Assembly: GCA_016929235.1 (NCBI GenBank)
Contig: JAFGJD010000005.1
Coordinates: 92,168-156,167 of the forward strand
Source of the DNA: Candidatus Babeliales bacterium
GTDB taxonomy: Bacteria; Babelota; Babeliae; Babelales; JABCYS01
Reading direction: 5' to 3'
Length of the DNA: 64,000 nucleotides
How positions within the stretch are numbered: position 1 is the first letter of the stretch; the number at the start of each line of letters is the position of its first letter. Both the position numbers and the translations under genes were made by a program. The notes under the pieces were generated by a model. That model had not been told where the DNA came from and did no database searches. It worked only from the letters and a program-made list of their open reading frames with translations. Below are positions 1 to 36,356 of the stretch, piece by piece.

Positions 1-175
<175 letters not shown>

Positions 176-190
176 TTAGTGTTATATAAG

Positions 191-210
191 GCCGGGATCA
201 TATACCCGGC
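191..210 (-). promoter_or_regulatory. Perfect 6-bp stem / 8-nt loop hairpin in the dnaK leader; function unknown
   Basis: GCCGGG-ATCATATA-CCCGGC lies 31-50 nt upstream of the dnaK ATG at 160, just before an AAAGGGA Shine-Dalgarno-like run. I did not find a CIRCE (TTAGCACTC-N9-GAGTGCTAA) element. Confidence 0.3.
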
Positions 211-480
211 TAACTTTTAAAATTCTCTATAGATTTTTAACTGTTCTGGAAGAAAATGTCAATGAGGTCTTGAAATTTTCTTAGTCTAGTAATGTAGATT
301 ATCTCATGCTTTAGTTGAGGCTAGTCTTTGGGAGGGGCTATCTGTGGCCAAAATAGTATGCCCTGAATTAAATCGATGTAAAGCCTGGATTCTGTTTGGC
401 TAAGATGAGTCTCGAGTTCTTTTGTTTATATCTTTCTTCGAGTCCGTCTGATAATGCCAGGGGCTCCCCCTTTAAGTCTT

Positions 481-745
481 TCTTACCTCCACTCCGCCCC
501 CGCACGCCCCGGCTGGTGGGCCCGGGCCTTCGATGATGACATGGGGGTGGGCGAAAGTTCGAGACGGAGGGGTTGGGTAACGAGGGGGCACGGGTCTTGG
601 GAAAGCTTGGCGAGCTCGTGCCTGAGGGCTCGAGCTACGAGGCTACGCACTGGGGGGAATGGATGAGGGCGCGAGCTGATAGCTCGTGGGGTAACAGGGC
701 GGTGGTGCTCGGCTCCGTTTTCTATGCCCTGATCAAACACCCCCC
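481..745 (+). other. GC-rich, strand-asymmetric non-coding island; candidate structured RNA of unknown class, or a foreign DNA remnant
   Basis: I hand-counted 159 G+C in the 240 nt from 481 to 720 (~66%), against ~40% elsewhere. Positions 481-540 are C-rich and 541-720 are G-rich on the + strand. Local hairpins include CGAGCT-GAT-AGCTCG (672-686) and AGCTCGTGCC-TGAG-GGCTCGAGCT (613-636, one U-U mismatch). GGGGGTG (543-549) can pair with CACCCCC (738-744). The only ORFs here are Arg/Gly/Pro/Trp-rich, overlap on both strands, and lack an RBS. Confidence 0.35.
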
Positions 746-770
746 GACTGTGCATAATGTGAATAAAAGA

Positions 771-803
771 AATTATAAGGAATTATAAGGAATTATAAGG
801 AAT
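771..803. repeat. Tandem 10-mer AATTATAAGG x3 plus a partial fourth unit
   Basis: aattataagg aattataagg aattataagg aat reads directly at 771-803, at the right border of the GC-rich island. Confidence 0.9.
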
Positions 804-1463
804 CATTATGTATAAGATTTTCTACGGACCTTATGATAGAACATGCTTATTGAGCCTTCACCTCCTCCTATCTCTCTACACACACTTCGCGCCTGCCCGC
901 ATTCCCGCGTATGCCCACAGAACCAATCGAACGTTACCCTTCCTTTTATATCCCTTACTTTTGTTATGGAGCAGAAAATCAAAACCCTCCATAAAGGGGA
1001 AAATCGGGCAGCCTCTCTACATCGGCCAGGTGGAATCTGGAGGTGCAACCGGACATATGAAATGCTCATGCAAAAAGCTACGCTACGATTGCTACTGTGG
1101 TTTTCGTTGTGAGGATCATTATCATAATACACGCATATCACCTTGTGTGGCGCCAGTTGTTGTGGCCATCCTGGTCTTTCTTTACTATATTTCCGTAGAA
1201 TAGGGGTTGTGCGAGTAGGTCTTTGAGATGCACCCCTCAGTTCGTTCGTCAGCGCATAAATAAGATATGTTATAGTGAACTCCTGACCAAGACATCGTTG
1301 GTGATTATTCGTGCCATATGATGTTTCGTCAGAATGTGTAGCCCCCATTCTCTCTCAATGGACTTTTGGTTGACAGAGTGGGTTATTTCCGTTGACTTTC
1401 TCGGATCAAAACAAGTACTGTTATCATGTTACTAGGTATGGTTGAGTTGTAGAGGATTGCCTT

Positions 1464-1910
1464 ATGAATGCCAGAATCTCCAGTCTTGCTATCGCAGGAA
1501 GTCTGCTTGTAACCCTTATTATCATAGGACGCCTTAGCATAGGCGTTTCGTATGCTGACCAATCTCTAGTAACAGAGACTTCTCAGGTAGCCGTTCAATC
1601 AGACCAAAAGAATGATAAGGCAGCCCTGGAGAAGCATGTCCCGTGGTTATTGTTGGCAACTGGCGGTGGTTTATCCGTTGCCGCACTCTTATGGTACGCT
1701 GCTTTCAAAACTCGAAGGCTTGGTGATAGAATTGATCGCGTGGGGCAACAGCTGGACATGGCACGCCAACAGTTAATTATGGCGCGTGCAGCCGGTAATA
1801 TGCAAGCCGTGTTTCAAGCTAGAGTTGCAGAAAATGCGGCTATTGTGGAAGCTACAAGAATATTGGAATCGCCGTTTGTAAGGTTGCTGATCAGACTAGG
1901 GATTATCTAG
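1464..1910 (+). CDS. Hypothetical bitopic membrane protein (signal peptide, one TM, Ala/Arg/Gln-rich helical tail); member of the window-wide family
   Basis: The N-terminus is SSLAIAGSLLVTLIIIGRLSIGVSYA. The internal TM is WLLLATGGGLSVAALLWYAAF, followed by KTRRLGDRIDRVGQQLDMARQQLIMARAAG. Confidence 0.6.
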   Translation: MNARISSLAIAGSLLVTLIIIGRLSIGVSYADQSLVTETSQVAVQSDQKNDKAALEKHVPWLLLATGGGLSVAALLWYAAFKTRRLGDRIDRVGQQLDMARQQLIMARAAGNMQAVFQARVAENAAIVEATRILESPFVRLLIRLGII

Positions 1911-19423: not shown

Positions 19424-20326
19424 ATGATATTGGCATTTATTCTCTATGTTTTATTCGCACTTATTTTCATCTTTGGAAAAATATCATTGGGATATGGTAG
19501 TCCTATTTTTGCGGTAGGTGTTCGTATGCTTATAGCTGGGTTTATCCTGATGGGTTACTTATTGTGGAAGAATCCAAAAGCATTGCGTATACGTAAAAAG
19601 GACATTCTTCCAATTGTATTAGTAACTATCTTTAACGTGTACCTCACCAACGTACTTGAATTCTGGGGACTACAGTATTTGGTTTCAGCTAAGGCAAGCT
19701 TTCTATACAATTTATCCCCATTTCTCACAGCACTTCTTTCCTATTTTGTTTTTTATGAAAAGATGACAAAACGCAAGATCATAGGCCTCGTTGGAGGATT
19801 TATTGGTTTTCTTCCTATCTTAATGAGTGAATCTCAGGGTGAACTTGCTTCGGGACATATAGGATTCTTTTCGTGGCCTGAGCTTGCGCTTTTGGGCGCG
19901 GCAACAGCAACAACGGTTGGCTGGATAGCATTGCGCACCATGGTTACTCACGGATTTTCACCAATTGCTGCTAACGCATGGAGTATGTTAATCACTGGAT
20001 TCTTATGTATTCCTACCTCGCTTGTATTCGAAACGTGGAATCCATTTCCTGTCGTAGCGTGGAAACCGTTCTTGGGCTGGACCTTGATTATTGCTATGAT
20101 CTCAAATTTGATATGTTACAACCTTTATGGCTACCTTTTAAAGCGATACTCGGCAACGTTAATGGCATTCCTCGGTTTCTTCTCTCCATTCATCGCTGCC
20201 ATTGTTGGTTGGTTGGTACTTGGAGAAACGGTAACATGGAACTTTGTTACCTCTGCTGTTATTGTGTTTGTTTCATTCTACCTCTTTTACAAGGAAGAAT
20301 TGCGTCAGGGTTATATCAAGATTTGA
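19424..20326 (+). CDS. EamA/DMT-superfamily transporter (10 TM), paralogue 1
   Basis: It is 300 aa with two EamA halves. The C-terminus is FYLFYKEELRQGYIKI. Confidence 0.85.
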   Translation: MILAFILYVLFALIFIFGKISLGYGSPIFAVGVRMLIAGFILMGYLLWKNPKALRIRKKDILPIVLVTIFNVYLTNVLEFWGLQYLVSAKASFLYNLSPFLTALLSYFVFYEKMTKRKIIGLVGGFIGFLPILMSESQGELASGHIGFFSWPELALLGAATATTVGWIALRTMVTHGFSPIAANAWSMLITGFLCIPTSLVFETWNPFPVVAWKPFLGWTLIIAMISNLICYNLYGYLLKRYSATLMAFLGFFSPFIAAIVGWLVLGETVTWNFVTSAVIVFVSFYLFYKEELRQGYIKI

Positions 20327-20338
20327 TGAAAGGATTCA

Positions 20339-21244
20339 ATGAAATTAATAATACTGTTCAACGCAATTTCGGCAGCCAGTTTTCCTATCAGTAAGTATCT
20401 TATCGGAGTAATGCCACCATTCTTATTGACTGCTGTAAGACAGCTTTTGAGCGGCATAGCATTGTTGGTATACCAATATTTTATGAAGCCTCATACTCTA
20501 TATATTAAGCGCAAAGACTGGGGCAGTCTCGTTGCAATTGGACTCTGGTTAATGTGCTTATCCCTGGTGCCTATCTATTATTCTTTAGACTACATTACGA
20601 CTGCGCGCTCTAGTTTTATTTTTAATCTTACCCCATTCATCACAGCATTCCTTTCATACCTATATTTTAAGGAAACACTTACCATTAAAAAAACGTTGGG
20701 GCTTTTTATTGCCATTGTAGGGTTCCTTCCCCTATTGTTGACTGAATCTCCAGGCGAGTCATCTAAAAACGGTATGCTCTGGATTTTTAGCTATGGAGAA
20801 CTGTTTGCTATTGGCGGAGTTTTCGCATGGGCCTATGGCTGGGTCTTGGTAAGAAAGTTAGTCTCGTGCAAACGATATTCCCCTATAGCTATTATGGGAT
20901 ATACCATGGTAATTGGGAGTTTTTTCTCATTTATAGGTGCAGGTATATTTGAGTCATACCGTGTTTCATATACTCATGGATATGTGGCACTGATTTTGTT
21001 TATTCTCTTTATGGGCGGTAATGCAATAGGGTACAGCCTTTACTCGTATCTTTTGCAACAATATACTGCAACATTTCTTTCATTTGCAGCGTTTATGATG
21101 CCGATGTTTGCGGCCTTGTTTGGATGGATATGTCTACATGAGCCCATTACAATCTACTTAGTTGTTTCAACGATACTTGTTTTTGTTGGTCTTTATTTGT
21201 TCTATCAAGAAGAACTTCGACAAGGATATGTCGTACGCGACTAA
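20339..21244 (+). CDS. EamA/DMT-superfamily transporter, paralogue 2
   Basis: It is 301 aa with the same architecture. The C-terminus is LYLFYQEELRQGYVVRD. Confidence 0.85.
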   Translation: MKLIILFNAISAASFPISKYLIGVMPPFLLTAVRQLLSGIALLVYQYFMKPHTLYIKRKDWGSLVAIGLWLMCLSLVPIYYSLDYITTARSSFIFNLTPFITAFLSYLYFKETLTIKKTLGLFIAIVGFLPLLLTESPGESSKNGMLWIFSYGELFAIGGVFAWAYGWVLVRKLVSCKRYSPIAIMGYTMVIGSFFSFIGAGIFESYRVSYTHGYVALILFILFMGGNAIGYSLYSYLLQQYTATFLSFAAFMMPMFAALFGWICLHEPITIYLVVSTILVFVGLYLFYQEELRQGYVVRD

Positions 21245-21327
21245 TCGCTGTTGGCATACCTCAAAAAATGCGTATATTGAGATTCTTGTAAAGAAGCCCA
21301 CAGACCTATGGGGATCTCAAAAGGCAG

Positions 21328-22002
21328 ATGAAGACGTATCTAAAATATTTACTTTTTGCTGTGATAGCGTCACTTCCAATTTTGTTTTATGTATTTAACT
21401 TCAATGAACATCTCACCGTTGCAAACCTAAAATATTACCAATGTTTGTTGAAGGAGATGGTGGATCAGCATCAGTTTCTGTCGATTATTCTTTTCATGCT
21501 CGCGTATACTGCAAGCGTGGTTGCATCACTTCCTCTTGGCGGCCTTTTTACATTGACTGGCGGCTTTTTATTTGGGGTGTTTCCTACGGTGATTTGCGTC
21601 GATATCTCTGCGACTGCGGGAGCTATAGGGGCATTTCTTTTGGCGCGATACGTCTTTGGAGAGGCATTGCATAAAAAATACCCTTACTACATAAGCAAGC
21701 TTTCAGGAGAACTTTCACAATATGGATGGAGTTACATGTTGAGCATACGCCTCAACGCTGCCATCCCATTCTTCATCACCAATATGATTATTGGGCTCAC
21801 TCCATTACCTCTCAAAACATTCATCTGGACTACAGCTGTCGGAATGATTCCGAGTATTACCTTATTTGCATTTGCCGGAAGTCGTTTAGCAACAATTCAT
21901 ACTATTGGGGATATTGTCACGCCACATGTTCTAATGGCATTTGGAGCATTAGCATTGTTGCCGATTTTCTCAATGCTTGCGCGTCGTTGGTATAGAGCTT
22001 GA
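21328..22002 (+). CDS. TVP38/TMEM64 (DedA-related, SNARE-associated) family membrane protein
   Basis: The core VVASLPLGGLFTLTGGFLFGVFP...ATAGAIGAFLLARYVFG is typical of the family. Confidence 0.75.
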   Translation: MKTYLKYLLFAVIASLPILFYVFNFNEHLTVANLKYYQCLLKEMVDQHQFLSIILFMLAYTASVVASLPLGGLFTLTGGFLFGVFPTVICVDISATAGAIGAFLLARYVFGEALHKKYPYYISKLSGELSQYGWSYMLSIRLNAAIPFFITNMIIGLTPLPLKTFIWTTAVGMIPSITLFAFAGSRLATIHTIGDIVTPHVLMAFGALALLPIFSMLARRWYRA

Positions 22003-22057
22003 CCTTCATACTCAGCTTTTCTATAGTCAGGCAAATTCGTTGTTATAAGGAGAGGCT

Positions 22058-22507
22058 ATGAATATAAAATCGTGTTTCATCATTGGATTTCTTGTGAGCT
22101 TTCCGCTTTCAACATTTCCATGGATTTGGACGCTTATGAATGATACAAATAAGCCAGTGCTTGTTGTGCCAAATGGTTCCTATGCTTTGCGCATAGAGCC
22201 ACGTCAGGTCAAAGCTCTTGATACGGGGGTTACTCCTACTTGGTGGAATAAAATGCAAAGCTATATGGCTCCTCCTTCGTTTGCTATCTATTTTGAAACC
22301 AATACAGAAGATGTTTTTGTACAACGCTTCAAGCTCACAGAGCGACATACGGTTGCAAAAAACGATCGATTGAAAATTAGTGATATTGGCCGGAATACTG
22401 AAGTTGCTGCTAAAAATTTTCATGTAAAGACCTTTTTTATCCCTGAACAACAGCAAGCACAAGAACTAAAACAAGCTAAAAAAATGAGTAAGAAGAACAA
22501 AAAATGA
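22058..22507 (+). CDS. Hypothetical secreted or anchored protein with Lys-rich C-terminus
   Basis: The N-terminal hydrophobic segment is CFIIGFLVSFPLSTFPWIW. I recognised no family. Its stop overlaps the next EamA start in an ATGA. Confidence 0.5.
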   Translation: MNIKSCFIIGFLVSFPLSTFPWIWTLMNDTNKPVLVVPNGSYALRIEPRQVKALDTGVTPTWWNKMQSYMAPPSFAIYFETNTEDVFVQRFKLTERHTVAKNDRLKISDIGRNTEVAAKNFHVKTFFIPEQQQAQELKQAKKMSKKNKK

Positions 22508-23406
22508 TCTTAATTGCGGTCCTCTACCTGATCTGTGCAAGTACGTTTACGATATCAAAAAATGCTTTGAATTACGCTGACCCAATCTTTTTTACGGGTG
22601 TCCGCATGACTTTATCGGGGATCTTGCTCCTCAGTTATCATCTTGTCCGAAATGGTTATTCGCTGCGGCTTAAGCGTGATCATTATCTACTATTTGGACA
22701 GGTTGTACTGTTCTACATCTACTTGGCCTATGTCTTTGATATTCTAGCGCTTCAACATCTTACCTCAGCAAAAGCATGTTTGCTCTATGATCTTTCACCA
22801 TTTATCACAGCATTGTTTTCCTACTTTGCGTTTCGTGAGGTGATGACCACAAAAAAATGGGTAGGTTTGAGTATCGGCCTTGTTGGATTCTTGCCAAGTC
22901 TCTTGTCACAAGCTGCGCGTGAGGCAGCACCAGTAGGTGTACCGTTTTTATTACCAGAAGGATTGATGTTGGGTGCCGTAGTAAGCTCGGTGTATGGCTG
23001 GGTGGTAGTTCGTAAACTTGTGCGAGAAGGGTCATATTCTCCTGTGCTGATTAATGGAGTGGCAATGTTGGGCGGGGGCCTGCTTGCGCTTCTCACCTCT
23101 TTTTTCTGGGAGGGATGGTATACAGCTCCAGTGACCAATGTAGGTCAGTTCGCTCTTTATACAGGATTGATTATCCTTACATCGAGTGTGTTATTCTCGA
23201 ATCTATATGCGTATCTTCTCAAAAAGTATTCTGCAACATTACTTTCATTTGCAGGATTTACCGCACCATTATTTGCAGCATTACTTGGCGGGATATTTCT
23301 TGGTGAGACTGTGTCTTGGGATTTCTTTGTTACTACAGGGTTTGTAGTTTTTGGTATCTACTTATTTTATCAGGAAGAACTTAAACAAGGGTATGTTCTC
23401 GATTAG
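22504..23406 (+). CDS. EamA/DMT-superfamily transporter, paralogue 3
   Basis: It is 300 aa. The C-terminus is IYLFYQEELKQGYVLD. Confidence 0.85.
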   Translation: MILIAVLYLICASTFTISKNALNYADPIFFTGVRMTLSGILLLSYHLVRNGYSLRLKRDHYLLFGQVVLFYIYLAYVFDILALQHLTSAKACLLYDLSPFITALFSYFAFREVMTTKKWVGLSIGLVGFLPSLLSQAAREAAPVGVPFLLPEGLMLGAVVSSVYGWVVVRKLVREGSYSPVLINGVAMLGGGLLALLTSFFWEGWYTAPVTNVGQFALYTGLIILTSSVLFSNLYAYLLKKYSATLLSFAGFTAPLFAALLGGIFLGETVSWDFFVTTGFVVFGIYLFYQEELKQGYVLD

Positions 23407-26537: not shown

Positions 26538-27443
26538 ATGAATGGTCTGATTACAAAGTTCGAAGCATATCTACTTACTGAAAAGCGCGTCTCGCATAAT
26601 ACATTTGATGCCTATAAGCGTGATATGGCACAGTTTCAAAGGTTTTTGGATGAAAAGAAGCTTATTCTACAAACAGTGCACCTTGATGAATTGAAAAAAT
26701 TTCTTGAATGGTTACATGTACGAAAAATTGGAGCACGAAGCTTGTCTCGTAAGATTTCATGTTTAAAAGCATTTTATAGATGGGCGGCCGAATATCACGG
26801 GCTTCATAATCCTGCTGCTGAACTTGCATTTCCCCGTATAGAAAAACGACTTCCTCAATACCTATCTGAAAAAGATATTGAAGCTTTACTCGAGGCAGCA
26901 AATAGCAACATAACACCGCTTGGAGTTCGCAACAAGGTGATTGTGTATTTGCTCTATGTGTCCGGAATGAGAATTAGTGAGCTTGTATCGCTCAAAAAAT
27001 CGCATATGCATTTTGATACAGGCCTAATCGTTGTCCAAGGTAAGGGCGGTAAAGAGCGTCAGATTCCATTGCCAGCGGAAGTTCTTGAACTTATGCGTCA
27101 TTACTTTAGTACTACGCATCGAAAGCTTACGCAGCAGGGCAACTTGTATGTTGAAACCGACTATGCATTTCCTGTGCTGTATGGCAAACGCGTCAAGCCA
27201 ATATCACGACAAGCGTTCTGGCTGATTCTCAAAAAACTGGCTCGTTCGGTTGGTATAAAAGATATGGTTTCACCACATAAATTACGACACTCGCTTGCAA
27301 CACATTTACTACACAAGGGAGCAGATCTCCGTTCATTGCAGCTTCTACTCGGCCACGAAAATCTATCAACAGTGCAGATCTATACGCATCTAGAGACAGG
27401 TCATTTGAGATCTATTTATGATAAGAAGCATCCTCGATCATAA
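26538..27443 (+). CDS. xerD: Tyrosine site-specific recombinase XerC/XerD
   Basis: It has an N-terminal SAM-like domain and catalytic-domain motifs: GMRISEL, HKLRHSLATHLL and LLGHENLSTVQIYTH (catalytic Tyr). Confidence 0.85.
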   Translation: MNGLITKFEAYLLTEKRVSHNTFDAYKRDMAQFQRFLDEKKLILQTVHLDELKKFLEWLHVRKIGARSLSRKISCLKAFYRWAAEYHGLHNPAAELAFPRIEKRLPQYLSEKDIEALLEAANSNITPLGVRNKVIVYLLYVSGMRISELVSLKKSHMHFDTGLIVVQGKGGKERQIPLPAEVLELMRHYFSTTHRKLTQQGNLYVETDYAFPVLYGKRVKPISRQAFWLILKKLARSVGIKDMVSPHKLRHSLATHLLHKGADLRSLQLLLGHENLSTVQIYTHLETGHLRSIYDKKHPRS

Positions 27444-27526
27444 GAATTTTTTATTTTTTATATGATCTGAGTATACTGCTACCAACCTTGCTGATATCTG
27501 TACACTTTTGTTGAGGACGATGCGTT

Positions 27527-28654
27527 ATGGAAAACAAGTTTGTGATTGAACAGAAGTCGATTTTGTCTGTTTTATCATCCATGCAACCTATATGCACAAA
27601 GCGAACAACACTGGATACGACAAACTATATTTTGTTTCATGTTGGTCATCGTGAACTTGTTCTCAAGAGCACAGATCTTGAAATTAGTTTGCAAGCAAAT
27701 TGCACCCTCAAAGAAAGTGATGTAACGGAAACACGTTCATTTCTTGTGTCAGGACGTCGGCTTTTTGATTTAGTAAAAGAGCTTGCTGATGATATTACCG
27801 TAACGATTGATGATACAAGTCTCGGCCTTACCTCAGGGACAGCGCAGCTTACGCTTAATATTAAGGATGCACAGGAATTTCCACCATTCCCAGAACGCAT
27901 TGAAAATTTGATGCATTTGGATGCAAAATTTGTACTTGAGCTACTCAATAAAGTTGCATTTCTAATTCCACAAAATAACGCAAATCCTGCACTTAACGGT
28001 TTATTTTTGGAACTTTCGTCGGCAGGCCTCAAGATGACTACAACAGATGGGCACTGTCTTGCACAGATTGCTACGAATAAATATAAGCTTGATGGCGAAA
28101 AGAAATGGCTTTTGCCGCGACGAGCAATTTTTGAAATTAAAAAAATTCTTGAAAGTTCAGACGATGCAACACTGTTCCTAGGAACTTGCGGCAACCAGCT
28201 GGTATTTTCAGGAACATCATTCAACTTCTTTACCAAATTACTTGTAGATCCATTTCCTAATTATTCGACCATTCTTGATCGCAATGGATTTATACCTGCA
28301 CGTCTGGATAGAACCAACTTTGTAAAAACTTTGCGCAGGTCGTCCGTCCTTCTATCAGGTCAGTTTATTGCTACAAAGTTTGCCTTTGAAAAGGAACGGC
28401 TCAGTGTTTCTCTGCATAATAAAGAGGTTGGAAAGCTAGACGAAGCACTTGCGTTGGAAGATTTTGACTCTGATAAAATGGAAATCAGATTTTACTCACC
28501 ATATCTTTTGAGTGGGCTTCAAGCATTCCAAGACGAAAAAAGTACATTCTATCTAAAGAATCCCGCTCGCCCAATCATTTTCGAGTCAAACGAAAAAGAA
28601 AAAGGATACATGTTAACGTATCTTGTCATGCCAGTATCCCCATCAACGCAATAA
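27527..28654 (+). CDS. dnaN: DNA polymerase III beta sliding clamp
   Basis: Its 375 aa fit the three-domain clamp layout. The sequence is DnaN-like throughout (LLNKVAFLIPQNNANPALNGLFLE, PNYSTIL, and others). It is followed by recF. Confidence 0.9.
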   Translation: MENKFVIEQKSILSVLSSMQPICTKRTTLDTTNYILFHVGHRELVLKSTDLEISLQANCTLKESDVTETRSFLVSGRRLFDLVKELADDITVTIDDTSLGLTSGTAQLTLNIKDAQEFPPFPERIENLMHLDAKFVLELLNKVAFLIPQNNANPALNGLFLELSSAGLKMTTTDGHCLAQIATNKYKLDGEKKWLLPRRAIFEIKKILESSDDATLFLGTCGNQLVFSGTSFNFFTKLLVDPFPNYSTILDRNGFIPARLDRTNFVKTLRRSSVLLSGQFIATKFAFEKERLSVSLHNKEVGKLDEALALEDFDSDKMEIRFYSPYLLSGLQAFQDEKSTFYLKNPARPIIFESNEKEKGYMLTYLVMPVSPSTQ

Positions 28655-28667
28655 CTTTTTCAAAGAC

Positions 28668-29783
28668 GTGCAGATAACAAGCCTTCACATAAAAAATTTT
28701 CGCTGCTTTTCGTCGCTTTCGGTGAATCTTGATGATCGTATCATTGTAATAGAAGGCGATAATGGTTCGGGTAAAACATCCTTGCTCGAGGCAATCCACT
28801 ATCTTTGTTATATGCGTTCATTCAGGACGCATATTCCACGAGACTTGGTAAATTTTGAAAAGGATTCATTTTTTGTTAAGGCACAGCTCTCTGTTGATGA
28901 TGCTCCCGCTGAAATTCAAGTTGGTTTTTCCGGAGCACGGAGACTTGTAAAATTTAATCAACGGCCGATACAATCATTTAAGGATCTTGTTCCACATTAT
29001 CGAGTCGTTACTCTGATCGAAGATGATCTTATGTTGATCAAAGGTGGCCCTGAGATTCGACGTGCATTTATTGATCAGGCATTGATACTTTCTAATCCAG
29101 ATTACCTGCTATCACTCAAATCATACCGCGCGGCAGTTGATCATCGAAATACCGTTTTAACTCAAAGTCATGTTGCGGATGATACGTACCGTTTTTGGAC
29201 AAAGCATCTGTGGGAGCAGGGTATCACCTTGCAAAAACAACGTAGGGACCTACTTGCCAACTTAGAACAGCGAGTGAATATTTTATTTAAAGAGCATTTT
29301 TCCGAGCAATCACCATTAGATATTACACTTGAATATCGTTCACGTAAGCACGCCGATGATGAGTCATTTGATACATTCTTGCAAGTGTACGGTGATTTGC
29401 TTAAGCAGGAAGAATTGCGGCTTGGTCGCTCCATGTTCGGCGCGCATCTGGATGATTTTGCCATTCATTTTCGTTCTAAAAAATCCAAGCTTTATGCTTC
29501 CCGTGGGCAACAAAAGCTTATTATGCTTCTACTCAAAATTGCACACGTACAGGAGATCATTGAGCAACATGGTCCCATCATTTTTTTACTCGATGATCTT
29601 ATGGCTGACTTTGATACTGCAACGCTTGAGCGGCTTGTCGCTATGTTGATCAATCTTAACTGTCAGCTCATTTTTACAATCCCCACGCAACCGTCTCAAT
29701 TAAAGGACCTCCTGACCATCCAGGGCGCTGTCATTATGAAATTGACAGATGGAAACATTTGCTCCGCTGCTGGCGATTTCTGA
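28668..29783 (+). CDS. recF: DNA replication and repair protein RecF
   Basis: The motifs are ITSLHIKNFRCF, Walker A GDNGSGKTSLLEAI, signature SRGQQKLIMLLLKIA and Walker B IFLLDDLMADFD. I prefer GTG 28668, just after the dnaN stop, over the track start 28623, which overlaps dnaN. Confidence 0.9.
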   Translation: MQITSLHIKNFRCFSSLSVNLDDRIIVIEGDNGSGKTSLLEAIHYLCYMRSFRTHIPRDLVNFEKDSFFVKAQLSVDDAPAEIQVGFSGARRLVKFNQRPIQSFKDLVPHYRVVTLIEDDLMLIKGGPEIRRAFIDQALILSNPDYLLSLKSYRAAVDHRNTVLTQSHVADDTYRFWTKHLWEQGITLQKQRRDLLANLEQRVNILFKEHFSEQSPLDITLEYRSRKHADDESFDTFLQVYGDLLKQEELRLGRSMFGAHLDDFAIHFRSKKSKLYASRGQQKLIMLLLKIAHVQEIIEQHGPIIFLLDDLMADFDTATLERLVAMLINLNCQLIFTIPTQPSQLKDLLTIQGAVIMKLTDGNICSAAGDF

Positions 29784-29843
29784 TTTTATTTCATTTGACA
29801 GACTTATAAAAACATCGTATTGTTTTTCGACAAATTTAAACCT

Positions 29844-30050
29844 ATGAAGGGGCTACTGATCGCAGTTTTCGCGCCCTTTGACATTATTAAATTTTTGCCC
29901 ATACTAGGTTTCTGTGATGACGCGTTCCTACTGTTGTTTTGGAACGCTTTAACTTTAGGCTTCATTACTACTCTCCTTTTTTCCACCGTATTGATCTACG
30001 ATCAGTGCGGTGGTTTTTTTGGATCAAATCTATTTCTTTTACTCCTCTAA
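29844..30050 (+). CDS. Small membrane protein, DUF1232/YkvA-like
   Basis: PFDIIKFLPILGFCDDAFLLL resembles the DUF1232 D-x-IP-D-x-IP-x-x-G-x-x-DD motif. It has two TM helices. Confidence 0.45.
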   Translation: MKGLLIAVFAPFDIIKFLPILGFCDDAFLLLFWNALTLGFITTLLFSTVLIYDQCGGFFGSNLFLLLL

Positions 30051-30098
30051 ATTTCCTATCCTAAACCTATAATTAGATAATGTAGGGGAAGGAATAAT

Positions 30099-31556
30099 AT
30101 GAGGTATCTATGGCTCATTACCTGTATCTCCATAATGTATGGAGCTATGGGCATAGAATTAGTTGATATAGGTCTAGAGGGGACGGTACTCACGGCTCAA
30201 GAGCTAGAACAGGCCAAGCGCGGCAACACCACCATAAGGCGCGATGTGCGGGATGCTGTCCTATGGCATCAAGCTATCCCTACTACGGGACTTCTGGAGA
30301 CAACACCTTACTTTCCCCCGCACTATCCCTATCTGCCGCATCAGTTTACCCTGTGGGAGCTTGCTCCTAATAAGGGTAGGGGGGTTTCTATCGGGATTAT
30401 CGATACAGCAATAGGACCTAATCCTGATCTCATGTTTGCCTACCAGACGATTAATCTCGTTCCTAAAATAGAGGGCTCTGTAACAACTGCTGGAGAACCA
30501 AAGCTCAGCCATGGGAGCCATACCATGGGCATTATTTCAGGAATAGATGATGGAGGGGAGAACCGTTCGCCTTCTCAGGATACAGGAATTAGCGGCCTTG
30601 CCCCTAATGCTACTATTACGTTGCTTAATGCGTTTGAGAATGGTAAAAGCTCCAAGAATATGCTTACCAGGGCCCTTGAGGAAGCCCATCGGCAGAATAT
30701 TGATATTGTTAATATGGGCCTTAAAATTGCTGAATCCATTAATCTAGACGATCAATCTACCAAGGAGCTTGAACGCGCGATTGGTCATATTCCTTATACT
30801 GTAACGGCTGCGGGAAACTCAGGAACATCCCATCTTTCTTATCCCGCAAAATTTCCATGTGTAACCTTCGATGTTGGAGCCTTTAAGTATAAAGATAACG
30901 CGTATCCTATATTTGAGGTATCGCAACATGAAGAGGGGATAGGGCCACTTTTTGTAGCACCTGGCTACAATATTTTGAGCTCAGGCTATCCGGATAATGA
31001 TCAAGCGACCTATGTCTTTATGGGTGGGACATCCACAGCAGCGCCAATAATGACAGGTTTTGTTGCACTTATGCTAGGTGAGTTCAAAGACACCTTTACG
31101 AAACCCCAGCTGCTTGCGGTTGTGTATACATCGGGGTTCTTTATGCATGACACACAAAGCTGGAAATCGCACTCATTGCTAGGAACTCTTGATATGAGAA
31201 CAGCTTTATTTGTATTACATTGCTTGAATTATATACGAGATCACTATCCAGATGTGGATTTTGCCGATAAGGCACAATTTGAGACAGCTGTAGCGATACT
31301 ACACGATATGCTGCTACAGCCAATTGGCGGGCAAGCAGCAAAGCAAAATTTTGCAGTATTTTTAAACCAGAATGCTCACCAATCTCCACATCCAACTAAT
31401 CTTAATCTTTCTCAGGTAGTTGCTTCTGTTGCTCATAAGGCATACCAAAAGTTGGGTGGTGTAAAAAATCAAAAAAACAGTACACTATTCTCACACTTAC
31501 CACAGTACACACAGCAACGAATTGAAAAAAAGCTGAAATGTAGTTCTGAATCTTAG
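30099..31556 (+). CDS. Secreted subtilisin-like serine protease (peptidase S8)
   Basis: It has a signal peptide and the catalytic triad contexts GIIDTAI (Asp), SHGSHTMGII (His) and GGTSTAAPIMTG (Ser). Confidence 0.85.
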   Translation: MRYLWLITCISIMYGAMGIELVDIGLEGTVLTAQELEQAKRGNTTIRRDVRDAVLWHQAIPTTGLLETTPYFPPHYPYLPHQFTLWELAPNKGRGVSIGIIDTAIGPNPDLMFAYQTINLVPKIEGSVTTAGEPKLSHGSHTMGIISGIDDGGENRSPSQDTGISGLAPNATITLLNAFENGKSSKNMLTRALEEAHRQNIDIVNMGLKIAESINLDDQSTKELERAIGHIPYTVTAAGNSGTSHLSYPAKFPCVTFDVGAFKYKDNAYPIFEVSQHEEGIGPLFVAPGYNILSSGYPDNDQATYVFMGGTSTAAPIMTGFVALMLGEFKDTFTKPQLLAVVYTSGFFMHDTQSWKSHSLLGTLDMRTALFVLHCLNYIRDHYPDVDFADKAQFETAVAILHDMLLQPIGGQAAKQNFAVFLNQNAHQSPHPTNLNLSQVVASVAHKAYQKLGGVKNQKNSTLFSHLPQYTQQRIEKKLKCSSES

Positions 31557-31574
31557 GTTTGGGGATCTGGTCAT

Positions 31575-32786
31575 ATGAATAAAATCATTATAGCGCTGGT
31601 ATTCTTGGGGAATGCGTTGTGTGCGCAGGAGTATCTCTATCCTGTGGGAAAGATACAAGATGAAGGGCGCACCATGGTGTATCTTATACATCAGCGCTCG
31701 CCATCTCATATAAATCTTCTTATATGGAATCCTGTTACCTATGAAACATCGCCTGGTCTACTCTCTACATATACCCCGGCAAGCTTTACGTTACTTCCAG
31801 ATCAAAGTGGATTTAGTTTCATTGATCATGGGAGAGTTCGCATAAAAAATTTTAATAAACGATCTCCAAAAGCAATTAGTTTTAGATATCCCATAGATGA
31901 CATTACTAAGATTTGTTGGCTTTCCAATGAAACGTTTTATTTCTCGGGAAGGCCTGGACATCGCTTTGGTATTTTTGCAGCAAATCTCCAGGGCGATGTT
32001 ATACCGCTGATTCATGACACGATTAATGATTATCTTTATCCGCAAAGGATTGGATCTGAACTATTCTGTATTAAGAGAACACCTCAGGGAACCTATTCGA
32101 TTATAACCACCCATGTTTCTGATATTAATCTGACAAATAGAAGCTCTTCATTAAATGAAGAAGAATTTCATGCTGCAGTACTCCAAATGATGTATGAAGA
32201 CGCGGAACCGGTATTTGCAGCCCCAGACTTAGAAGATGTTTTTTCTGATGACACAACGGCATTAATTTTTCTTACAATGGTCTCTGAGGCCGAGGGTTTT
32301 GTTATTCAACATCCTCGGACAATCGAATCAGATACACATATGATTAAATTTTCGTATTGCCACATCATCAAAAATAATAACACCTGGAAGAATGAACAGT
32401 TGTTTGCGTTTACTCTTCCAGCAAAATTCATTCGTCGTGGCTCAGACGATCTTTTGTATGAAAACATTCTACCATTGCTTCCTCGCGTTTTTGGTAATGA
32501 TATTTTTTATGCTCATTGTGATGATTCAGATCATTGTAAAACCAACTTATTCAGTTTTGATATGACCAATCATCATTCGGAACGGCGTTCGCTGCCTATA
32601 TCACACGAGCTTTTAGATTCTGCAAGTTTTTCACCTCTCACCGTAGATCCATTTGTCTTTTATGGCGGGAAAATTTCATATGCCTATGATCAACCAAGCG
32701 GCTATGGAACAACACCAACATTGTGGATCAATGAGCGAGGCATTTTATGTGCTGCTTTGCCTATGATAAATAATGCGTTACTCTAA
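31575..32786 (+). CDS. Hypothetical secreted protein, possibly TolB/PD40-like beta-propeller
   Basis: The signal peptide is MNKIIIALVFLGNALCA. It is beta-rich, with one PD40-like stretch (FTLLPDQSGFSFIDHGRVRI). The family call is weak. Confidence 0.4.
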   Translation: MNKIIIALVFLGNALCAQEYLYPVGKIQDEGRTMVYLIHQRSPSHINLLIWNPVTYETSPGLLSTYTPASFTLLPDQSGFSFIDHGRVRIKNFNKRSPKAISFRYPIDDITKICWLSNETFYFSGRPGHRFGIFAANLQGDVIPLIHDTINDYLYPQRIGSELFCIKRTPQGTYSIITTHVSDINLTNRSSSLNEEEFHAAVLQMMYEDAEPVFAAPDLEDVFSDDTTALIFLTMVSEAEGFVIQHPRTIESDTHMIKFSYCHIIKNNNTWKNEQLFAFTLPAKFIRRGSDDLLYENILPLLPRVFGNDIFYAHCDDSDHCKTNLFSFDMTNHHSERRSLPISHELLDSASFSPLTVDPFVFYGGKISYAYDQPSGYGTTPTLWINERGILCAALPMINNALL

Positions 32787-32832
32787 ACGGTGATTACAAG
32801 CGCATTCGCATCACGTTCGTGAAGGAATATCC

Positions 32833-33129
32833 ATGATTTTTTCGTTAAAAAAATTAACATTGCTTATTATATTTATCATAGGAAGTATGGTGACAAAAAC
32901 AATGCCAGACCCCACAAAATCATCGGATGCTTATCGACGGGCCGTGGAAGGCTTGGTTATGCAATGGAGAATTTCAGGAAAAAATATGCATGGTGATTGG
33001 GGCTTGCGGAACTTTCACGAGAGATCATTTGTATATGCAATGCAAGCACCTGGCTTCCCAGAAGGTTCCGATTATGGGGTTGTTGCAGCTTATTTATCAC
33101 AACGCTATCCAGATGCAAGGCCAAGCTGA
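32833..33129 (+). CDS. Small hypothetical secreted protein
   Basis: The N-terminal segment LTLLIIFIIGSMV is signal-like. I recognised no family. Confidence 0.4.
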   Translation: MIFSLKKLTLLIIFIIGSMVTKTMPDPTKSSDAYRRAVEGLVMQWRISGKNMHGDWGLRNFHERSFVYAMQAPGFPEGSDYGVVAAYLSQRYPDARPS

Positions 33130-33171
33130 TTTTACATAAGATCCATTATCAGGAGGTAAAAGTTTTGGTCT

Positions 33172-33648
33172 CTATGGATATGTCACCAACATGATCGGCA
33201 TAGATTCATGGAACTTGAGATCCTTGAGTTGTTTTCTAAAAACCTTATACCAAGGCATGGTAACAAGATCATTCGTAACCTCAATCCAGAGAAAATCACT
33301 ATAAAAATGGTCACAGAGAAATTCAGAGAGATCATTATATGGATAACTCAACCATCCCCCAGCCTCTAACTCTTTTAGGACAGAGACAATGGAATTGCCA
33401 AGTGGAATTGAACTGACTGAGAGACATGCAACTTCATTATAATAATTAAATGACCCAAGGAAGGTTTTCATGAGCTCTCGGCCATGAAAAACATCCCTAA
33501 CCATGATTGAATGGAATCCGTTGGTTAAAAATTTATCGCTTAATGTTAGGATTTCTTGTTCTGCGGCTGAAAGATCTATCGTTGTTGTTGGTACCGCTGC
33601 GCCGAATCTAAGTATCGCGTTAGTATTCATTGTTGCGTCTCGTTTCAT
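33172..33648 (-). CDS. Hypothetical cytoplasmic protein
   Basis: It is a 158-aa ORF with plausible composition and no motif I recognised. The start may be ATG 33630. Confidence 0.45.
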   Translation of the reverse strand: MKRDATMNTNAILRFGAAVPTTTIDLSAAEQEILTLSDKFLTNGFHSIMVRDVFHGRELMKTFLGSFNYYNEVACLSVSSIPLGNSIVSVLKELEAGGWLSYPYNDLSEFLCDHFYSDFLWIEVTNDLVTMPWYKVFRKQLKDLKFHESMPIMLVTYP

Positions 33649-33909
33649 GGCTTACCCCTCCCGGTTTATCCCCCCATTGAGTAATCCCCTGCATTCCTAT
33701 CATGAGTTGCGCCATTTGTGTCATAGTTTGTTGTAAACTTTTAATGCTTCTAAAACATACAAAAAAAATGATATAAAAATCAAGTTTTTATATCAATATG
33801 AAAAGTAACAACAAAAAAATGAATCAAAAATAAAGATACATAAGGAATAAAATCAATAAGATACGAACTGTAACAAAAAAATGAATTTGATTGTTAAATA
33901 GTGCAACAG

Positions 33910-34398
33910 TCACTTTTGGGCGCTGATAATCTTTTTTGTGTTCCATAAACCACAAACTGAAACTGCAAGCGCGTCTGTGACATCGAATTTTTTTGGCATC
34001 AGTAATCCGGGAAATAGCCGTAGGAGCATGCGAGCAACCTGTTCTTTACTAGCGCCACCATATCCTGTTAACGACTGCTTAACCTCACGTGGCGAAAACT
34101 CGTGGAGTGTAATTGAGTTGCTATATGCAAGATGATAAATGATGCCTCGCAAATATCCAAGTTTCAAAAAGTTTTGAGCATTTTTGCCAAGAAATGGAGT
34201 TTCGATTGCAATATCGGTTACGTGCCATGTTTGAATAAGATGCAGCATATTGTCATGAAATTTTGAGACACGCTCTGGTAATCCCTTTGTTCCTAAGCGC
34301 AAGAATCCATAATCAAGTAAGACCGAACGTTGCTTGTCTTTTTTTAACACTCCATAGCCACTGATGATGGTTCCGGGATCGACGCCGAGAATGATCAT
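33910..34398 (-). CDS. ruvC: Holliday-junction resolvase RuvC
   Basis: The motifs are MIILGVDPGTIISGYGVL, AIETPF and DVTDALAVSVC. Confidence 0.92.
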   Translation of the reverse strand: MIILGVDPGTIISGYGVLKKDKQRSVLLDYGFLRLGTKGLPERVSKFHDNMLHLIQTWHVTDIAIETPFLGKNAQNFLKLGYLRGIIYHLAYSNSITLHEFSPREVKQSLTGYGGASKEQVARMLLRLFPGLLMPKKFDVTDALAVSVCGLWNTKKIISAQK

Positions 34399-34424
34399 TC
34401 TCTCTCCTTTTCATACGAACATCT

Positions 34425-35798
34425 TTACTGTTCGTATTCCGCATCCTCAAACTTCGTAAGTTCTTTAAGGAAGTTCAAATAGGCAGTACCAGTTGGTCCA
34501 TTCCGCTGCTTACCTATAATCAGCTCGGCAAGCGCAGGGTTATCGGTCTCAGGATGATACACGACATCACGATATAAAAACATTATCAAATCGGCATCCT
34601 GTTCGATTGCTCCGGATTCACGCAAATCAGAGAGCATCGGTCGCTTATCCATGCGACTATCAACTGCACGTGATAACTGTGACAATGCAATAACTGGAAT
34701 AGCAAGCTCTTTGGCAAGAGCCTTAAGCGCGCGCGATATTTCTGAAACCTCCTGATGTCGGTTTTCATGGCGACCAGGTGCACGTAGCAATTGGAGATAA
34801 TCAACAATTAATAATTGAAGCCCATGCTCAGCTTTGAGCTTGCGAGCCTTGGCACGCAGTTCCATTACATTGAGCATTGCAGTATCATCAATAAAAATTT
34901 TTCGTGAAGCTAATGAACTAGCAACATTAGTAAGTGTTAGCCATTCATCAGAGGTTATAGTTGCATTGCGAATATTGTGATGTGGTATGCCAGACTCTGA
35001 TGATAGCAAGCGTAACGTGAGTTGTTCTGCTGACATTTCGAGCGAAAAGAAGCCAACGGTAAAATCATGGCGCGCCGCATTGATCGCAGCGTTGAGTGCA
35101 ATACCAGTCTTACCCATCGAGGGGCGCCCTGCTACAACGATTAAGTCGCTTTTTTGAAAACCCGACGTAAGATGATCTAGTTTTGCAAAACCACTCGGCA
35201 CTCCGGTAATACCATGCGCGTGTGTCTTGATTTCGTTAATGTGTTGGAATGTTCGCTTCAACCAAATATTCAGTTGTGTAAAACTTTGGTTTGCACGTTT
35301 GTGCGATATATTGAAAATCGTTTTTTCAGCGTTATCAAGAACCGCTTCTATTGCTTTATCCTGTTGATCATAGCATGTCGTGATAATGTCAACGGCAGAA
35401 CCAATGAGATCACGAAGCACTGATTTTTCTTTGATAATACGTGCATGGGATTCAATCATACCTGCTGACGGAATCTCATCTTGCAACGATAGGAGGTACG
35501 ATGATCCACCGATTGCTTCCAATTGATCTTTCTTTTTCAGCTCATCTTGTAAGGTAACTAAATCAACGCGATTAAATTTCTCGGCCAGTTCCAAAATGGT
35601 TTCATATACAATGCGATGTGGTGCACTGTAAAAATCTTGTGCTAATAAAAAATCAGACACTGATGAAAGTGTCTGATCATCTAATAAGATTGCACCAAGA
35701 ACAGCTTTTTCTGCTTCCGTATTAAACGGCAGTTCTTTTCCAAGAATGGTTTCAGGTGCTATAGAAAGATTCCGTTGTTCTTGTTTTCGCTTTTGCAT
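34425..35798 (-). CDS. dnaB: Replicative DNA helicase DnaB
   Basis: The motifs are LPFNTEAEKAVLGAILLD, Walker A GRPSMGKTGIALN, LLIVDYLQLL and KQRNGPTG. Confidence 0.95.
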   Translation of the reverse strand: MQKRKQEQRNLSIAPETILGKELPFNTEAEKAVLGAILLDDQTLSSVSDFLLAQDFYSAPHRIVYETILELAEKFNRVDLVTLQDELKKKDQLEAIGGSSYLLSLQDEIPSAGMIESHARIIKEKSVLRDLIGSAVDIITTCYDQQDKAIEAVLDNAEKTIFNISHKRANQSFTQLNIWLKRTFQHINEIKTHAHGITGVPSGFAKLDHLTSGFQKSDLIVVAGRPSMGKTGIALNAAINAARHDFTVGFFSLEMSAEQLTLRLLSSESGIPHHNIRNATITSDEWLTLTNVASSLASRKIFIDDTAMLNVMELRAKARKLKAEHGLQLLIVDYLQLLRAPGRHENRHQEVSEISRALKALAKELAIPVIALSQLSRAVDSRMDKRPMLSDLRESGAIEQDADLIMFLYRDVVYHPETDNPALAELIIGKQRNGPTGTAYLNFLKELTKFEDAEYEQ

Positions 35799-35809
35799 GC
35801 GTTAGCTGC

Positions 35810-36259
35810 TTAATCTTGTTCTGGAACAATTTTCAAGAGGACTGTCGGTTGAAGTCGTGATGATAATTTAATGGTGATGTGGTGTACACCTTTTTCTTTA
35901 ATGTTTTTATCAAAGATGACTTGATTTTTCGCAACCTTTACACCTTCATCCGCCAGTAACTCCATAACTTCCATAGGGCTGACTGAACCATAAAGTTTAC
36001 CGTCGTCGTGAACCTTACGTTTGAGGATTAGTTTTAGTGACCGAATTTTTTCTGCAAGCATTGAGGTTTCAGTTGCGATCGCAGTTTTACGGTCTTGTAT
36101 TACTTTTACACGCTTTGCAAAGCTTGATTCGTTGTGGGGTGTTACCTGTTCGGCCAATTTTTTAGGGAATAGATAGTTCGCTGCAAATCCATCTGAGACT
36201 TTGACCATTTCCCCGGCAATGCCTACTTTGGCCACGTCTTTCAGTAAAAACACCTTCAT
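35810..36259 (-). CDS. rplI: Ribosomal protein L9
   Basis: MKVFLLKDVAKVGIAGEMVKVSDGFAANYLFPKKLA. Confidence 0.93.
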   Translation of the reverse strand: MKVFLLKDVAKVGIAGEMVKVSDGFAANYLFPKKLAEQVTPHNESSFAKRVKVIQDRKTAIATETSMLAEKIRSLKLILKRKVHDDGKLYGSVSPMEVMELLADEGVKVAKNQVIFDKNIKEKGVHHITIKLSSRLQPTVLLKIVPEQD

Positions 36260-36356
36260 AATTATCCTTGTATGCTAGCAATAGAATTGACGTTGTTCGA
36301 TAGTGCACTCGGCACAAGACAGAGTTGAGTATAGAAAAAAACAAAGCGGTTGAGAA

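Follow-up and report, generated by a model that had tools for sequence, protein, structure and literature searches.

A modular, dispensable non-coding element upstream of dnaK in one Candidatus Dependentiae clade, probably transcribed as a structured RNA

In the 64-kb stretch of DNA analysed here (contig JAFGJD010000005.1; hereafter the window), the first 160 positions are taken up by the 5' end of dnaK, a minus-strand gene, and the region upstream of this gene, 161-1463, holds no credible open reading frame (ORF). We propose, at a probability of roughly 0.6, that this ORF-free stretch is a copy of a modular, dispensable non-coding element of one Candidatus Dependentiae clade, and that the element is probably transcribed as a structured RNA. 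The copy occupies approximately 446-1013 with its blocks on the minus strand; coordinates are those of the window, and blocks are described in the dnaK orientation. The ordered blocks recur in front of dnaK in no fewer than 10 related lineages, whose comparison shows a single-copy, dispensable and non-coding element whose predicted hairpin is maintained by compensation. That the element is conserved, functional and non-coding we consider very likely; that it acts as an RNA is close to an even wager.

Composition and coding content of the stretch upstream of dnaK

The G+C content of 481-720 is 66.25%, which makes this segment the most extreme 240-nt window of the entire 64 kb (mean 42.6%, standard deviation 4.3%, runner-up 55.8%). 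The strand bias flips at 540/541, with 16 G and 27 C on the + strand of 481-540 and 83 G and 33 C in 541-720. A first-pass annotation of the window had reported approximately 66% G+C here together with a sharp switch from C-rich to G-rich sequence, and our counts agree on both points.

The same annotation saw no believable ORF in 161-1463, a judgement borne out by codon log-odds, periodicity and protein searches. A codon-usage log-odds score, for which 29 long genes of the window served as the training set, ranged from -0.18 to +0.03 for ORFs in 450-1350, as against 0.07-0.30 for the window's real genes, and no periodicity of third-position GC was detected in the gene-free stretch. Two ORFs of 131 and 90 amino acids, both gene-caller calls on a Logan contig, matched only themselves among 5.8 billion proteins, and a 180-amino-acid ORF covering the 1014-1463 stretch had no match among 1.84 billion cluster representatives. 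No ORF was conserved between lineages in a comparison across 11 of them. Neither codon usage, periodicity, homologues nor a shared ORF, then, marks the stretch as a protein-coding gene or pseudogene. The Logan contig, from run SRR13394437, is identical to window 1-1500 (100% identity).

The 131-amino-acid ORF (808-1203, + strand), which is without a homologue, overlaps blocks A and B of the element described below and begins directly after AAGGAA repeats that resemble Shine-Dalgarno sites. An ankyrin gene in the related locus L083 likewise begins after purine-rich repeats on that strand.

Ordered blocks are shared by related lineages

Relatives of the window were collected through DnaK, with a query consisting of the first 159 residues extended with the Logan contig. 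The window's dnaK product is 81% and 79% identical to those of two metagenome-assembled genomes, one labelled Candidatus Dependentiae, with no other genome representative above 69%; the protein search returned approximately 30 further DnaK fragments at 75-84%, one of them named HGW-Dependentiae-1. The contigs of these matches, together with loci from JGI metagenomes, constitute the relatives' loci, which we designate by L numbers. A gene order of dnaK ... CarD-miaA-SPOR is common to the window, L002 and L083.

The same ordered parts occur upstream of dnaK in the window and in L002, L084/85, L089, L091/92, L093, L094, L096 and L175, with partial copies on the short contigs L090, L098 and L100. 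Homologues in related genomes, which the first-pass annotation had allowed for, were thus found at this site in at least 10 Dependentiae lineages. In the dnaK orientation the parts run A, B, a G/T-rich tract, C repeats, the D-E-F hairpin and H (Table 1), and H is separated by 100-250 nt of AT-rich sequence from an inverted repeat with its T run, after which comes the TTGACA/TATAAT-like promoter of dnaK. Block C ranges in length from 37 nt in the window to approximately 700-900 nt in L093 and L091; at its position the relatives carry different short repeats, pyrimidine-rich and G-poor, that extend over 40 to approximately 900 nt.

Blocks A and B are visible in an E-INS-i alignment (8 lineages for A), and distances to the dnaK ATG were obtained with regular expressions. 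In 11 clade lineages the dnaK ATG is preceded, at a distance of 170-440 nt, by the block H pattern TTAT[GC][CGA]GAC, compared with two matches, at unrelated distances, in approximately 130 unrelated dnaK loci. A bump in GC content sits at the same place in the relatives (0.52-0.69, versus 0.35-0.44 for the loci). The window and L002 gave only a marginal match in blastn. As neutral intergenic DNA is not alignable at this divergence, the ordered blocks indicate selection.

The element was absent from the fetched dnaK flanks of six related lineages (L003, L087, L088, L095, L097 and L174), and is therefore dispensable at the dnaK site. In the empty loci L088, L095 and L174 a membrane-protein gene is separated from dnaK by approximately 220 nt; in the occupied loci L093 and L175 the gap between a related membrane-protein gene and dnaK measures 1.27-1.44 kb and includes the element. 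Since occupied and empty loci have a related upstream gene, presence and absence correspond to an insertion or deletion of approximately 1 kb at one site. The element is single-copy, with one occurrence in the 64 kb and none elsewhere in approximately 200 kb of related loci.

Compensatory changes in the predicted D-E-F hairpin

Blocks D, E and F together form a predicted hairpin of the form CAC-GGA-GUC, variable stem, GAC-GGA-GUG. D and F can pair as two 3-bp helices (P1 and P2) around a symmetric 3x3 purine loop, GGA opposite GGA, and enclose the linkers and the E stem. The unconstrained minimum free energy (MFE) fold of the D..F segment consisted of P1, the 3x3 loop, P2 and the stem in 7 of 9 lineages, and z-scores of the hairpin in the relatives were -3.8, -3.9, -3.75, -2.3, -1.1, -2.2, -0.3 and -2.3 (mean approximately -2.4). 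The E stems are unrelated in sequence (CCAACCACCCT/AGGGTGGTTGG, CCGGCCAGCCTT/AAGGCTGGCCGG and CCCCTTG/CAAGGGG are examples); stems of 10-13 bp differ completely in sequence with their pairing kept.

The six D/F pairs were returned by RNAalifold on a plain MAFFT alignment. When D, the outer six E pairs and F were aligned, 93% of cells were paired and 9 of the 12 pairs changed on both sides, a result matched by none of 500 shuffles. Counting only the six D/F pairs, across 10 lineages, gave 87% paired cells versus 76% in shuffles, and eight cells had changed on both sides versus 2.2 expected (0 of 500 shuffles match); the count of varying pairs in this same set was not significant. Individual pairs illustrate the exchanges: at pair 7:3' seven lineages have G-C and the other three A-U, and at pair 8:2' U-A, C-G and G-C all occur. 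Compensatory base-pair changes of this kind, as expected of a structured RNA, lend modest support to the predicted D-E-F hairpin in the relatives.

A covariance model built from seven lineages (R1) recovered one copy on which it had not been trained, at 3774-3854 of L083 (19.4 bits, E 0.11). This copy, which is preceded by pyrimidine repeats, keeps all six pairs, with U-A and G-C as two new pair types. It stands without A and B, and a 129-amino-acid gene lies between it and dnaK. This arrangement, apart from dnaK and apart from the distal blocks, identifies the hairpin module as a separable unit.

The copy in the window

Within the 701 nt of 400-1100, R1 places the hairpin module at 490-534 (12.2 bits, E = 0.009), and this placement replaces the candidate positions 707-721 and 641-649 for block D. 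The 66% GC island is a composite, made up of the conserved module and a private GC-rich insertion or duplication, 541-745, in opposite orientation; the C-rich/G-rich flip at 540/541 follows from the two arms or orientations of these pieces. The insert is closed by the 7-bp inverted repeat GGGGGTG (543-549)/CACCCCC (738-744); two pairs of direct repeats, 572-588/686-702 and 623-636/664-677, and an inverted F-like word (561-572) lie within it, and it shows no similarity to any sequence in the relatives' loci. Neither the module nor the insert folds clearly better than shuffled sequence, the z-scores being -1.07 (+) and -1.57 (-) for 450-770, +0.8/+0.9 for 486-649, and -1.6 (+) and -2.45 (-) for 541-745.

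Table 1. Parts of the element, their clade consensus and adjoining features in the window
Feature	Position	Strand	Sequence and remarks
dnaK 5' end	1-160	-	start codon 158-160; from translation; context gene, outside the element
dnaK promoter-like site and operator-like motif	233-289	-	TTGACA at 257-262, 18 nt, AAAAAT; between element and dnaK
Block H	446-455	-	ATTATCAGAC, local variant of ATTATGCGAC; dnaK-proximal edge of element
Small GC hairpin between F and H	460-470	-	GGGGGAGCCCC; read from the sequence; relatives have unrelated small hairpins here
Compact D-E-F hairpin module	490-534	-	AUCGAAGGCCCGGGCCCACCAGCC...GGCGGAGUG; homologue of the relatives' irregular hairpin
Block F	490-498	-	GGCGGAGTG
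GC-rich insert	541-745		205 nt; G-rich on + strand; genome-specific; most of the 66% GC island
Block C tandem repeat	767-803	-	ATTCCTTATA x3.7 in dnaK sense, AAGGAATTAT on + strand; Tandem Repeats Finder
G/T-rich tract	855-885	-	GTGTGTGTAGAGAGATAGGAGGAGGTGAAGG; precedes the repeats; similar tract at same position in L002 and L085
Block B	921-935	-	AACGTTCGATTGGTT; clade consensus ACGTGCGATTGGTAC
Block A	973-1013	-	GGCTGCCCGATTTTCCCCTTTATGGAGGG (985-1013), then TGATTTTCT (973-981); distal edge of element
Non-coding DNA from element to 148-amino-acid gene	1014-1463		no block found; not conserved in relatives; contains the 1203-1236 helix
Block A, consensus			GCGCC..TTCCCCTTTATGG; GCGCC..TT(T/C)CCCCTTTATGG, then GTGATTTTCT ~30 nt later
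Block B, consensus			ACGTGCGATTGG; ACGTGCGATTGGTAC, often two copies around a small GC hairpin
Block C, general form			tract of short tandem repeats, pyrimidine-rich and nearly G-free; unit and length differ by lineage
Block D, consensus			(C)ACG(G/T/A)AGTCGAGCC
Block E, general form			one or more GC-rich hairpins
Block F, consensus			GAGGACGGAGTG, then G-rich sequence
Block H, consensus			TTATGCGAC; ATTATGCGAC

The local features singled out in the first-pass annotation are all present, namely a hairpin at 672-686 (CGAGCT GAT AGCTCG), GCGAAAG and GGGAAAG words, a helix at 1203-1236, the 7-bp complement that closes the insert and a 10-mer tandem repeat (AAGGAATTAT x3.7 at 767-803). Its suggestion of a functional structured RNA stands in part: conserved blocks and a hairpin with compensatory changes in at least 10 lineages speak for it, but the local hairpins on which it drew are not the conserved ones. 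A single large structured RNA of approximately 0.9 kb, as that annotation had envisaged, is not borne out by what the relatives conserve. The G-rich bulk of the island is genome-specific and folds not clearly better than shuffles, the conserved hairpin is confined to 490-534 on the minus strand, 806-1013 holds blocks A and B and not helices, and 1014-1350 is not conserved.

Block A contains a weak hairpin with a T run, and 985-998 of the minus strand was called as terminator-like. The G/T-rich tract adjoins 887-906, which is 75% complementary to 655-674 within the island; these two 20-nt segments form an inverted repeat that brackets the window's tandem-repeat tract. L002 and L085 likewise have a purine run ahead of the repeats whose complement, a pyrimidine run, follows them. 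The tandem repeats may thus sit in a long-range stem.

Known RNA classes and other functions

The first-pass annotation could not assign the stretch to a known RNA class, and searches against curated families gave the same answer. None of the 4227 families of Rfam 15 reached its gathering score in the window; with the cut-off relaxed to E<=10, no match in 150-1500 was better than E = 3.9, and no known family was found in the homologous regions of seven relatives. ARAGORN reported no tRNA or transfer-messenger RNA (tmRNA) in the 64 kb. We accordingly rejected tmRNA (no tRNA-like end, 0 ARAGORN genes and no Rfam match), RNase P, signal recognition particle (SRP) RNA and 6S RNA (no Rfam match in the window or relatives, no P4 words and no large central bubble), and group I and II introns, GOLLD, ROOL, OLE, HEARO and raiA (no Rfam match in the window). 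The conserved hairpin has small internal loops only, unlike the 6S rod with its large central bubble.

A foreign or contaminant origin was rejected because ten or more related lineages have the element at this very site and because plasmid, phage and viral matches are lacking: blastn against plasmids and phages returned nothing, and an exact-word scan of viral contigs found no match to the element. The block B 15-mer had 25 viral matches, which we regard as chance since none was accompanied by any other block. The insert 541-745 alone could not be traced in the relatives. A replication origin (oriC) was likewise rejected; matches to the DnaA box with at most one mismatch numbered 0-2 per locus versus 0.2-0.7 expected, the element is absent from six lineages, and dnaN-recF and the switch in skew and gene orientation lie 27-37 kb away.

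Several narrower assignments were tried and discarded. By eye, the arms do not fit dif or attC; block H as a -10 box, in sigma-70, extended -10 or sigma-E-like form, lacks a consistent -35 box; and block B as a sigma-54 -24 box lacks a conserved -12 box. Block H cannot generally be a leader-peptide start (ATG CGA ...), as several variants are without ATG. A tRNA-like T-arm at block D occurs in L091 only, G-quadruplexes in some lineages only, and no intrinsic terminator is conserved. A loose descriptor of the D/F helices was dropped after it produced thousands of chance matches.

The dnaK promoter and operator are separate from the element

A clade-wide operator-like motif, CTAGACTAAGAAAATTT, lies at 273-289, just upstream of the dnaK promoter-like site, and the same promoter/operator arrangement is found in relatives with and without the element. 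Since loci lacking the element retain both the dnaK promoter and the inverted repeat, the element is not needed for dnaK expression.

Every clade locus has, ahead of the dnaK promoter, a short inverted repeat with a T run behind it, for example CTTAGCGCAATAGACTAAGATTTTTT, or AAAGTTGAGT-N7-ACTCAACTTTT. Loci showing the inverted repeat just upstream of the dnaK -35 box include the window (273-289), L096, L097, L083, L002, L175 and others. The inverted repeat with its T run is probably the heat-shock operator of the clade. A perfect 6-bp GC hairpin, GCCGGG-N8-CCCGGC, is located at 191-210, between the promoter-like site (233-262) and the ribosome-binding site, and presumably falls within the dnaK 5' untranslated region.

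Neighbouring features of the window and the relatives' loci

Beyond the element, 1014-1463 presumably holds the promoter of the 148-amino-acid gene, which has no relative among genome representatives. The spacer before the window's ankyrin gene contains a 61-nt direct repeat (2058-2118 / 2132-2192; 70% identity), each copy of which covers the start of a small ORF with the hydrophobic beginning KKIM(L/I)II(S)SSLL(V/F)P. Three EamA-family transporter paralogues (19424-20326, 20339-21244 and 22504-23406) and an intervening VTT-domain protein occupy a region in which a 105-nt direct repeat links 21038-21142 and 23203-23307 (EamA region 19424-23406). Further along are an Xer-like tyrosine recombinase (26538-27443), dnaN (27527-28654), recF (28623-29783) and dnaB (34425-35798, minus strand), with no dnaA in 26538-37679; gene orientation converges near 33 kb, and GC skew passes from positive to negative between 30 and 37 kb.

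Short-read assemblies break inside dnaK, L001 ending 477 nt into the gene and L091 and L092 both ending 657 nt in. Such breaks in independent assemblies suggest a second hsp70-like copy or strain variation. The long-read contigs L083, L087, L088 and L089 have dnaK split into several called genes, probably through frameshift errors. L083 also contains a weak match to group II intron domain V/VI at 2481-2558 on its minus strand (32.2 bits against a gathering score of 40, E 0.013), between CarD and an ankyrin gene.

Discussion

We interpret the ORF-free stretch upstream of dnaK as one copy of a modular element that most likely would be transcribed, with the hairpin and its conserved purine internal loop serving as a protein-binding RNA structure. 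The G-poor repeat tract would then be unstructured RNA, a spacer or a binding platform, and the whole would act as an accessory regulatory RNA that is not part of the dnaK mRNA. The conserved loop consists of purines when read on the dnaK-sense strand, a hint both of the strand in use and of a site for protein binding. Several observations weigh against this interpretation. The covariation comes from only about 10 lineages, with D and F anchored by hand and the E stems taken from each sequence's own fold. In the window itself the 490-534 module is degenerate, with U.U and A.G in its outer helix, and its canonical hairpin is not the MFE fold (z = +0.64). Folding energies favour the sense strand in 5 of 8 lineages and the antisense in 2, with differences of up to 11.6 kcal/mol, and energies taken together with G-U pairs single out neither strand. 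Consensus scans across lineages found no promoter or terminator conserved on either strand. The element is missing from six related lineages, and it is equally possible that proteins bind blocks A, B and H as DNA.

That last point leads to an account at the level of DNA, in which A, B (with its two ATTGG boxes) and H bind regulators or nucleoid proteins of the promoter region of dnaK or its neighbour, the GC hairpin is a cruciform or a single-stranded-DNA structure, and the polypyrimidine/polypurine repeats are a structural spacer. Such a cis element would account for the conservation of sequence blocks, not structure, at A, B and H, for the lack of a promoter or terminator for an RNA, for a hairpin equally possible on both strands and for the position next to the promoter/operator region. 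We nevertheless consider it unlikely: stems of 10-13 bp have changed wholly in sequence with pairing kept, and duplex operator sites do not evolve in this way; lineages without the element keep the dnaK promoter and operator; and the L083 module is separated from dnaK by another gene. The patchy presence at one locus (L088, L095 and L174 empty, L093 and L175 occupied), the GC-rich palindromes and a private insert flanked by an inverted repeat recall instead the relic of a non-autonomous mobile or insertion element upstream of dnaK, similar to a miniature inverted-repeat transposable element (MITE) or a repetitive extragenic palindrome (REP), with 541-745 a later insertion of the same kind. We give this origin little credence, given the single copy in the 64 kb with none elsewhere in the related loci, and given that neither a transposase nor a target-site duplication was recognised. 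Among lineages with a 16-33% difference in dnaK, position and block order stay the same, a constancy that speaks for vertical inheritance under selection.

Two further explanations appear highly improbable. GC richness within an AT-leaning genome, single copy number and a long irregular hairpin loosely reminiscent of 6S or SRP RNA would fit a very divergent housekeeping RNA (6S, RNase P, tmRNA or SRP RNA), or the stretch could be part of a replication origin. The negative Rfam and ARAGORN results, the lack of a large central bubble, tRNA-like end or P4 words and the absence from six related lineages contradict the former, as do the lack of DnaA-box enrichment and the distance to dnaN-recF and the skew switch the latter. 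The first-pass annotation had also entertained horizontally acquired, contaminant or decaying DNA. Seen in this way, the stretch would be an intergenic spacer decaying, with slippage repeats, in a reduced genome, or else an assembly chimera or DNA of host or foreign origin, consistent with fold energies in the window that are not special, with the degenerate local module and with the lack of anything comparable in relatives to the segments 541-745 and 1014-1463. Applied to the whole element, this account is largely refuted by ordered blocks and a covarying hairpin in at least 10 lineages where neutral DNA is unalignable, by an identical sequence in the Logan assembly and by the lack of any match to proteins, plasmids, phages or viral contigs.

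Searching GC-rich intergenic regions of AT-rich bacterial genomes has reportedly yielded candidates of the raiA, OLE, ROOL and HEARO type, and the element shares with such orphan motifs a long ORF-free region with local GC excess, conservation within one lineage, a hairpin kept by compensatory changes and a function that is not deducible from its neighbours. It differs in matching none of the Rfam families, in having one short covarying hairpin supported and not a large multi-helix fold, and in combining a hypervariable repeat tract of 40-900 nt with conserved unpaired blocks. Likeness to three other systems is superficial. Sponges of the CsrB/RsmZ type, built on GGA motifs, resemble it in the short-repeat array (AAGGAA on the strand opposite dnaK), whose repeat number varies by lineage, and in a GGA that the hairpin's conserved internal loop exposes on the dnaK strand. 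In the element, however, each strand carries one of the two kinds of GGA motif, the repeat units differ by lineage, L094 lacks repeats of this type and no promoter or terminator was found; no CsrA, Hfq or CspA was found in approximately 200 kb of clade DNA, an uninformative negative. REP sequences, bacterial interspersed mosaic elements (BIMEs) and MITE-like elements share GC-rich imperfect intergenic palindromes and presence/absence polymorphism, whereas the element is single-copy at a fixed locus with a fixed block order over deep divergence. The CIRCE/HrcA heat-shock operator is also an inverted repeat in front of dnaK, but this role is better filled by the separate repeat at 273-289, which resembles CIRCE but is shorter, than by the element, which is further upstream and dispensable.

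The element is a previously undescribed, lineage-specific conserved non-coding element and candidate structured RNA that belongs to no curated family, and our search of the literature found no lineage-specific non-coding RNAs or regulatory elements described for Dependentiae. A more ambitious reading, which we regard as decidedly unlikely, is that of a new class of modular non-coding RNA of 0.5-1.4 kb confined to Dependentiae, in which a conserved 5' part (A and B), a variable-repeat platform and a protein-binding hairpin with a GGA/GGA loop would together form an accessory stress-response regulator or decoy beside the chaperone locus. Candidate binders of the repeat tract would in that case be cold-shock-domain or S1-like proteins, or ribosomes via words resembling Shine-Dalgarno or anti-Shine-Dalgarno sequences.

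For the study of GC islands generally, the window illustrates that an island in an AT-leaning genome can be composite, and that composition alone overstates the amount of structured RNA. Dependentiae (TM6) are uncultured or hard-to-grow intracellular bacteria of protists. For them, the covarying hairpin and its flanking blocks beside the main chaperone gene provide a concrete, testable candidate that can be searched for in Dependentiae genomes and metatranscriptomes.

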